Source of the DNA: an uncultured Chloroflexia bacterium
GTDB lineage: Bacteria; Chloroflexota; Limnocylindria; Limnocylindrales; CSP1-4
Direction of reading: 5' to 3'
Assembly (NCBI GenBank): GCA_963819655.1
Contig: CAWFXA010000001.1
Coordinates: forward strand, 576,001-640,000
DNA length: 64,000 nt
Below, piece by piece: positions 35,955 through 36,500 of this stretch (position 1 is the stretch's first letter; every line of letters starts with the position of its first letter). The notes beneath the pieces were generated by a model. That model worked only from the letters and a program-made list of their open reading frames with translations. It searched no databases and was not told the DNA's origin. Made by a program: the position numbers and the translations under genes.

Positions 35955-36500
35955 GTGTTCATCCTCTTCGCCGTGCCGGTCGGGCTCGTACTGGGCTTCC
36001 TGATGGGTGGACGACTCGATCGCCTGTCGGAGATCCGGTTCGCATGGGCGTGGCTGGCCATCGTCGGACTGGCCGTGCAGATCCTCTTGTTCTCGACGCC
36101 GGTCGGCGGCTCCTTCCGCGGCGGGGTCGGCGAGGCCATCTACGTCGCCTCGACGGGCCTCGTGCTCATCGCGGTCTGGCGGAATCTGCGTGTCCCGGGG
36201 TTGACGCTGGTCGCGCTCGGAGCGATCTCCAATCTCGCGGCCATCGTGGCCAACGGTGGCGTGATGCCCACGACCCCAGGGGCCCTCGCGGCGGCCGGCC
36301 TCGATCCGCTCGATGGCTTCTCGAACAGCTCGGTCGTGCATGATCCTGCCCTTGCGCCGCTCACGGACATCTTCGCGATGCCGCCCTGGCTGCCATTCGC
36401 GAACGTCTTCAGCATCGGCGATGTGCTGATCGCGCTCGGCATCGTCGTCGTGATCGCCGTCGGGATGCGTCGCGGAGACCCCGCCCACCACCCCGCCTGA
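35955..36500 (+). CDS. DUF5317 family membrane protein (signal-peptidase-II-like motifs)
   Basis: GGRLDRL, GAISNL..IVANGGVMP, LTDIF, NVFSIGDVLI. Confidence 0.85.
   Translation: MFILFAVPVGLVLGFLMGGRLDRLSEIRFAWAWLAIVGLAVQILLFSTPVGGSFRGGVGEAIYVASTGLVLIAVWRNLRVPGLTLVALGAISNLAAIVANGGVMPTTPGALAAAGLDPLDGFSNSSVVHDPALAPLTDIFAMPPWLPFANVFSIGDVLIALGIVVVIAVGMRRGDPAHHPA

Follow-up and report, generated by a model that had tools for sequence, protein, structure and literature searches.

Is the DUF5317 protein (a domain of unknown function; Pfam PF17248) a divergent signal peptidase II, and if it is not, what might it do? The question is raised by a gene in a stretch of 64,000 nucleotides from an uncultured Chloroflexia bacterium (contig CAWFXA010000001.1, positions 576,001 to 640,000; the whole stretch is here called the window). 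An earlier reading of the sequence (the original prediction) held that its product looks like a divergent signal peptidase II (LspA, peptidase family A8), any activity of which would be on a non-lipoprotein substrate. LspA is an antibiotic target and, to our knowledge, the sole known family of its peptidase clan. We find that the C-terminal 130 residues of DUF5317, modelled alone, have LspA as their best structural match, that a near-invariant pair of aspartates faces outwards from the membrane, and that the gene is paired with one for a Cys-less micropeptide. The last three helices and outer loop of DUF5317 are probably a remote, homologous version of the LspA core (helices H2–H4) and, going by the models, the protein qualifies as a candidate, open to experimental test, for a new family of peptide-cutting enzymes.

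The DUF5317 protein and its conserved aspartates

The gene and the codons of its principal motifs lie at the following positions:

35955..36500, + strand: DUF5317 gene, GTG start, 181 amino acids plus stop
36219..36233, + strand: codons of G89-A-I-S-N93 in helix 4, proposed counterpart of LspA G-A-x-G-N (Staphylococcus aureus Gly102/Asn106)
36366..36368, + strand: codon gac of D138 (L-x-x-L-[GT]-D-x-F motif), proposed to correspond to the first of the two catalytic Asp in LspA
36420..36422, + strand: codon gat of D156 (F-S-x-G-D motif), where helix 5 begins on the outer side, proposed to correspond to the second catalytic Asp (LspA F-N-x-A-D)

The 181-residue open reading frame matches PF17248 over residues 27–167 (E = 2.8e-29; 102.5 bits, where the cut-off is 25), and the NCBIfam library holds no family for it. 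Its nearest relatives carry public names that indicate Candidatus Limnocylindrales (Chloroflexota). DUF5317 is a large family: at E ≤ 0.001 the 90% clusters contain 3,494 proteins, and searching 1.84 billion cluster representatives with the single sequence gives 3,068 representatives of 50% clusters. Matches of the family occur in Thermus thermophilus and Thermotoga maritima as well. Full-text literature searches returned no paper containing 'DUF5317' or 'PF17248', and none of the papers found on LspA-like proteins and LspA homologues, judged by titles and the beginnings of abstracts, concerns DUF5317.

The three LspA-like motifs of the original prediction are present in the claimed places and order, as GAISNL (residues 89–94), LTDIF (136–140) and NVFSIGDVLI (150–159). 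D138 and D156 are 18 residues apart, and the spacing of 18–19 given for LspA likewise holds, both in the Pseudomonas aeruginosa enzyme (9emz_A, Asp 124/143 by alignment) and in that of S. aureus (Asp118/Asp136; PMC6952399). In a set of 381 distinct DUF5317 domains, drawn from database proteins and from open frames of fetched loci, the proposed catalytic pair is almost without exception retained: D138 in 365 of 367 and D156 in 360 of 360. The residues around them are similarly constrained, with G89 kept in 375/375, N93 in 373/375, S153 in 360/361, G155 in 360/360 and F152 in 308/362. Conservation extends into the loop that follows helix 4, where N100 (371/375), G102 (372/375), M104 (364/375) and P105 (371/375) are nearly fixed.

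An AlphaFold2 model of the full protein, built on an alignment of 91 diverse relatives, has a predicted local distance difference test score (pLDDT) of 93.3 and a predicted template modelling score of 0.88. It contains five predicted transmembrane helices (residues 3–16, 32–45, 58–75, 83–99 and 154–170; AlphaFold2, DSSP). Helices 4 and 5 are joined by a loop of 54 residues (100–153) with short strands, and the model has no sheet before residue 100. In the 91 sequences the density of Lys plus Arg is 0.19–0.21 per residue in loops 17–31 and 76–82 and in the C-terminal tail, against 0.04 per residue in loops 46–57 and 100–153. The positive-inside rule therefore places the long loop and D138 on the outer side, together with the beginning of helix 5, where D156 lies. 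The two aspartates may lie close together in space.

Comparison with LspA

A Foldseek search with the full model returned nothing at E ≤ 0.001; LspA ranked only 37 and 49, yet with the highest template modelling (TM) values in the list. The structural alignment of the full model pairs residues 43–171 with residues 56–158 of 5dir. Because the aligned part was always 43–173 against LspA 53–159, we folded residues 43–172 alone (pLDDT 85.3). With this model the five top Foldseek matches, 5dir_A, 5dir_C, 6ryp, 5dir_B and 6ryo_A, are all LspA chains (query-normalized TM 0.46–0.52, probability up to 0.69, but E 0.8–3.2). In another structural search with the same residues, both LspA cluster representatives rank first and second among 48,161 chains, at an identity of 20–21% compared with 6–15% for the rows that follow. 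That two aligners independently select one tiny family from the whole of the PDB is, for a predicted model, stronger evidence than the sequences provide.

The aligned part of LspA comprises H2–H4, the structural alignments beginning at LspA residues 53–59. In S. aureus LspA these helices are proposed to form the space for the signal-peptide helix, with the catalytic dyad alongside (PMC6952399). D156 appears to coincide with Asp143 of 5dir and Asp136 of 6ryo and 6ryp in four of the five alignments and to be one residue off in the fifth, a placement obtained by arithmetic on the ends of the aligned ranges with the last helix assumed ungapped, rather than from a residue-level alignment. LspA (5DIR, 6RYO, 6RYP and 9EMZ) and DUF5317 share three helices that run in the same in/out direction as H2–H4, a putatively equivalent G-x-x-x-N on the helix that precedes the first Asp, and two Asp of near-equal spacing at the outer membrane face, near the outer ends of the last helices.

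The sequences point the same way, although weakly. Peptidase_A8 is the commonest second Pfam family among the 91 relatives (7/91 members, best E 0.16, with the next families at 3/91; 24,736 models, E ≤ 10). Aligning the 91-row DUF5317 alignment with one of 34 Chloroflexota LspA sequences by hhalign gives a score of 24.0 (P = 0.0047) and pairs D138 with the Asp of LspA V-V-D-F and D156 with that of F-N-V-A-D, a pairing that HMMER makes too. Reversed alignments score 11.2 and 11.9, and none of 200 column shuffles reaches 24.0 (mean 12.7, s.d. 2.3, maximum 20.4), a control that is lenient because shuffling breaks up helix-like runs. We also built a composite pattern post hoc to suit both families, G[AG]x[GS]N followed by D and two hydrophobic residues and then by [FY][NS]x[AG]D. 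Across a six-frame translation of the genome it matches only 3 of 19,346 open frames of at least 100 amino acids, namely the canonical LspA and both stand-alone DUF5317 proteins; this shows that the pattern is specific, but it is no proof of independence because it was fitted to these same proteins.

Several observations weigh against common descent with LspA. A profile of the 91 sequences found no LspA among PDB sequences, nor did phmmer with DUF5317 itself, and pairwise BLASTP of DUF5317 with the LspA of the same genome gave no match (best E 2.8). The Pfam A8 model (PF01252) reaches the window protein with only E = 2.9 and 8.5 bits against a gathering score of 25, aligning residues 70–168 with model positions 68–138. 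The hhalign probability for the alignment described above is only 7.5%, and a second alignment (103 rows, trimmed to 43–172) scores only 15.5 (P = 0.084), the Asp pairing being unchanged; against a single LspA sequence this second alignment gives E = 0.19. There are rival registers for G-A-x-x-N, in that hhalign and HMMER place the LspA Asn on N124 in the loop. The G89/N93 register fits the structural alignment ranges and the Pfam A8 alignment and has the spacing of LspA Gly102/Asn106. Finally, 5DIR may have taught AlphaFold2 the fold of LspA. The sequence evidence therefore points consistently to LspA but no method makes it significant, and homology is not established from sequence alone.

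A residue-by-residue comparison is mixed. From the 14 highly conserved residues listed for S. aureus LspA (PMC6952399), Gly102/Asn106, Val116/Asp118 and Phe132/Asp136 have plausible counterparts in G89/N93, L136/D138 and F152/D156, and both families have a hydrophobic residue at position −2 from the first Asp. LspA Asn133 is replaced by S153 and Ala135 by G155, a change that counts against the correspondence but keeps the shape F-polar-x-small-D. Asp109-Arg110 of LspA is absent from DUF5317, which has A96 and I97 at three and four residues after N93 (Ile in 341/375); the same source describes Arg110 as binding the substrate amide. Asp21/Lys25 of H1 and Asn52/Gly54 of the β-cradle likewise have no DUF5317 equivalents. 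LspA has four helices and DUF5317 five, the two N-terminal helices of DUF5317 standing where LspA has H1 and the β-cradle. DUF5317 further differs in that helix 4 and D138 are set apart by an insertion of about 33 residues, which carries its own conserved N100, G102, M104, P105 and N124.

As these elements (H1, the β-cradle and the Asp-Arg pair) are missing and the genome keeps a normal lspA (PF01252, E = 5.7e-36), we place DUF5317 outside family A8. The original prediction is partly supported, by structure, for an LspA-like core and abandoned for membership of A8. Among 121 sampled Chloroflexota genomes, LspA occurs in 119 and DUF5317 in 40; one unpublished genome (G038) is counted in these two tallies only.

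A second class of membrane aspartyl protease also merits comparison. The GxGD enzymes (presenilin and signal peptide peptidase, A22; the prepilin peptidases PilD and FlaK, A24) are polytopic membrane proteins with two Asp, and DUF5317 resembles them in that its second Asp stands in a small-x-G-D context (S153-x-G155-D156). It differs from them in its motif, SxGD, and in the position of the Asp, which lie at the outer surface and not deep within the membrane. No A22 or A24 chain is among the structural matches listed for DUF5317, an absence that does not exclude these families.

Separately, five Chloroflexota genomes (one family) encode short, divergent LspA-like proteins of 128–176 amino acids (L032 351–881, + strand; L036 482–868, + strand; also weak matches in L033–L035). 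They match Pfam A8 below threshold (E 1e-4 to 7e-4, model positions about 57–138) and have G-N ... T-D-W ... T-N-V-A-D at LspA spacing, without the long loop of DUF5317. In L032 and L036 the gene adjoins one for a pspA-like coiled-coil protein on the opposite strand. We considered these sub-threshold PF01252 matches as possible DUF5317 proteins and rejected them as a separate small LspA-like protein.

Genetic pairing of DUF5317 with a Cys-less micropeptide

Downstream of DUF5317, 173 nt to its 3′ side, lies a gene overlooked by annotation:

36674..36772, + strand: micropeptide gene, 32 amino acids, Cys-less, single helix; candidate partner or substrate of DUF5317

Its ATG is preceded by a purine-rich stretch, and the product has a basic N-terminal end, a hydrophobic core and the tail EAARRW. 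The original prediction had stated that the neighbouring peptides lack a lipobox Cys; one small gene adjoins DUF5317, and its product indeed contains no Cys.

By a pattern search, 23 of the 30 closest loci (L069–L098) contain the micropeptide gene; of the seven that lack it, L083 stops at DUF5317. Eighteen aligned peptides from Chloroflexota and Actinomycetota share an invariant R11, A28 and W32, with [RK][RK]W in the tail. When 27 distinct peptides are combined in a profile (threshold E ≤ 1e-3), it matches 51 of 108 DUF5317 loci, 18 of these outside the training set, and 0 of 31 control LspA loci (best E 0.077). DUF5317 and the micropeptide are thus genetically paired. In the six Actinomycetota loci from the pattern search the peptide gene lies upstream of DUF5317 on the other strand; the arrangement has therefore altered while the pairing persisted. 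Comparison of 14 equal-length orthologues gives 64 synonymous and 39 non-synonymous codon differences, which is only a hint of purifying selection because the compared rows are related.

Across 62,653 open segments of the source genome there are three significant peptide matches, two of them just 3′ of stand-alone DUF5317 genes. The genome has three DUF5317 genes in all. Besides the window copy there is a second stand-alone copy (G000:C1:507397-507816; L067 3899–4513), followed by its own peptide gene (4697–4783) and then by a response-regulator gene. The third is part of a 691-codon open frame (G000:C2:602863-603309; L068) that resembles the DUF5317 fusions with major facilitator superfamily (MFS) transporters and is adjoined by an HD-GYP gene. 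The third peptide match is an orphan member of the peptide family, with the tail ...LVAARRW and no DUF5317 alongside (G000:C2, ending at 110047, + strand).

In other Chloroflexota a second type of tiny one-helix peptide, ending ...A-G-A-P-x-D-W-P or a variant, is encoded just upstream of DUF5317 (L039, L041, L043, L044, L047, L048, L051, L052, L054 and L057). It stands in for the RRW type, and a BTAD regulator gene is often present too. Going by their sequences, both types are built as a helix, two small residues and a Trp a few residues on, a lipobox-like design minus the Cys. LspA, in contrast, cuts diacylglyceryl-prolipoproteins ahead of the lipobox Cys and is inhibited by globomycin. When DUF5317 and the 32-residue peptide were co-folded, each supplied as an alignment, the score was 0.02 against a mark of 0.32; this was a run without controls and counts neither way.

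Possible function and gene neighbourhood

These observations can be combined in a model in which DUF5317 would be a five-helix inner-membrane protein with its near-invariant Asp pair at the outer face of the membrane. H1 and the β-cradle of LspA would have given way to two additional N-terminal helices, with loss of the parts that recognize a lipid-modified Cys, and the protein would act as an aspartyl endopeptidase with a non-lipoprotein substrate. The transmembrane helix of the micropeptide would occupy the groove of helices 3–5, placing its conserved small-residue junction (A28, then Gly or Ala at position 29) beside the two Asp, where cleavage would remove the short basic-aromatic tail. 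We put an Asp-dependent peptidase that acts on the co-encoded micropeptide at somewhat short of an even chance. Further points tell against such a role: cleavage after A28-G/A29 would free just 3–4 residues, which is an odd product; the AGAPxDWP-type peptide has no basic tail; and the fusion partners and neighbours of DUF5317 described below fit a sensor as well as an enzyme.

A lesser but real possibility is that the fold derives from LspA without proteolysis. DUF5317 would then be a receptor or scaffold that holds the micropeptide in the old groove and reports the state of the envelope to regulators and to enzymes of cyclic di-guanosine monophosphate (c-di-GMP) turnover, and the Asp pair would hold the basic tail of the peptide or a cation. 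Among 30 Chloroflexota loci (51 frames), HD-GYP (PF13487) genes adjoin DUF5317 in at least 11 and BTAD regulators in at least 8; among 31 Actinomycetota loci (51 of 91 frames), genes for GGDEF-EAL or EAL proteins do so in at least 12. These are minimum figures, as the scan took in just the longest open frame to either side. A single DUF5317-GAF-GGDEF fusion (P0160) points in the same direction, as do the [RK][RK]W tail facing two acidic residues and the missing substrate-binding Arg. Such a receptor does not readily explain the near-total conservation of both Asp, G89, N93, S153 and G155, which resembles that of an active site, nor the peptide type that offers the Asp pair no basic tail, and no c-di-GMP gene lies near the window's own copy of DUF5317. 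DUF5317 might also be a second LspA-fold aspartyl peptidase family with a dedicated, co-inherited and signal-peptide-like Cys-less micropeptide, which, when cut or held at the outer membrane face, would feed into c-di-GMP turnover through the HD-GYP or GGDEF-EAL enzymes that adjoin it in many lineages. Such a scheme, which we consider unlikely, would amount to a new kind of peptide-processing signalling module across Chloroflexota, Actinomycetota, Thermus and Thermotoga.

The likeness to LspA could also result from convergence, or from three helices that happen to be arranged alike, in an unrelated small membrane protein such as a channel, a transporter accessory or a lipid-handling protein, with an ion or a polar head group as the ligand of the outward Asp pair. 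Every sequence statistic is sub-threshold, a look-alike search of the ESM Atlas gave no usable match, and fusions with MFS transporters recur (P0173, P0222 and P0244). We nevertheless judge this explanation improbable, as chance would have to account for the first and second rank of the LspA representatives with their higher identity, the independent choice of five LspA chains by Foldseek, the recurrence of Pfam A8 as second family, and the agreement in motif order, Asp spacing and topology. That DUF5317 is an ordinary second signal peptidase II processing lipoproteins is very improbable indeed: the motif likeness and the structural match are all that favour it, whereas canonical lspA is present and far more widespread than DUF5317 in the sampled genomes, the β-cradle, the H1 Asp/Lys and the Asp-Arg pair are absent, the Pfam A8 gathering score is not reached and the partner peptide has no Cys.

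Should DUF5317 prove to be a distant sister family of LspA with another substrate, it would reveal how the catalytic core evolved, and a widespread domain of unknown function would receive its first function. The fusions found among DUF5317 representatives are with GAF-GGDEF, with MFS transporters, to which further open frames of about 660–750 amino acids also belong, and with a PemK-like domain.

The remaining neighbours of DUF5317 in the window are the following:

34172-35449, - strand: 4-hydroxyphenylpyruvate-dioxygenase-like gene with Glyoxalase and HPPD_N domains, divergent from the DinB_2 gene
35448..35945, + strand: DinB_2-family gene (PF12867, E 2.4e-5), ending 9 nt before the DUF5317 start
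36819-38876, - strand: S9 prolyl-oligopeptidase-type gene, 685 amino acids with PD40 repeats, convergent to the micropeptide gene

A search of Rfam over window positions 30000–42000 found no riboswitch, just two chance-level matches, and a consensus scan of 35300–37000 found no promoter and no terminator. A DinB_2 homologue lies directly upstream of DUF5317 in 20 of the 30 close loci (L069–L098), and the DinB_2 gene is a lineage-specific neighbour and a likely operon partner. Homologues of the S9 peptidase occur in 20 of 76 loci searched, all 20 within the 30 close relatives; we considered this gene as a part of the system and rejected it, taking it for a case of lineage synteny. The 4-hydroxyphenylpyruvate-dioxygenase-like gene is 79–94% identical in 18 close relatives.
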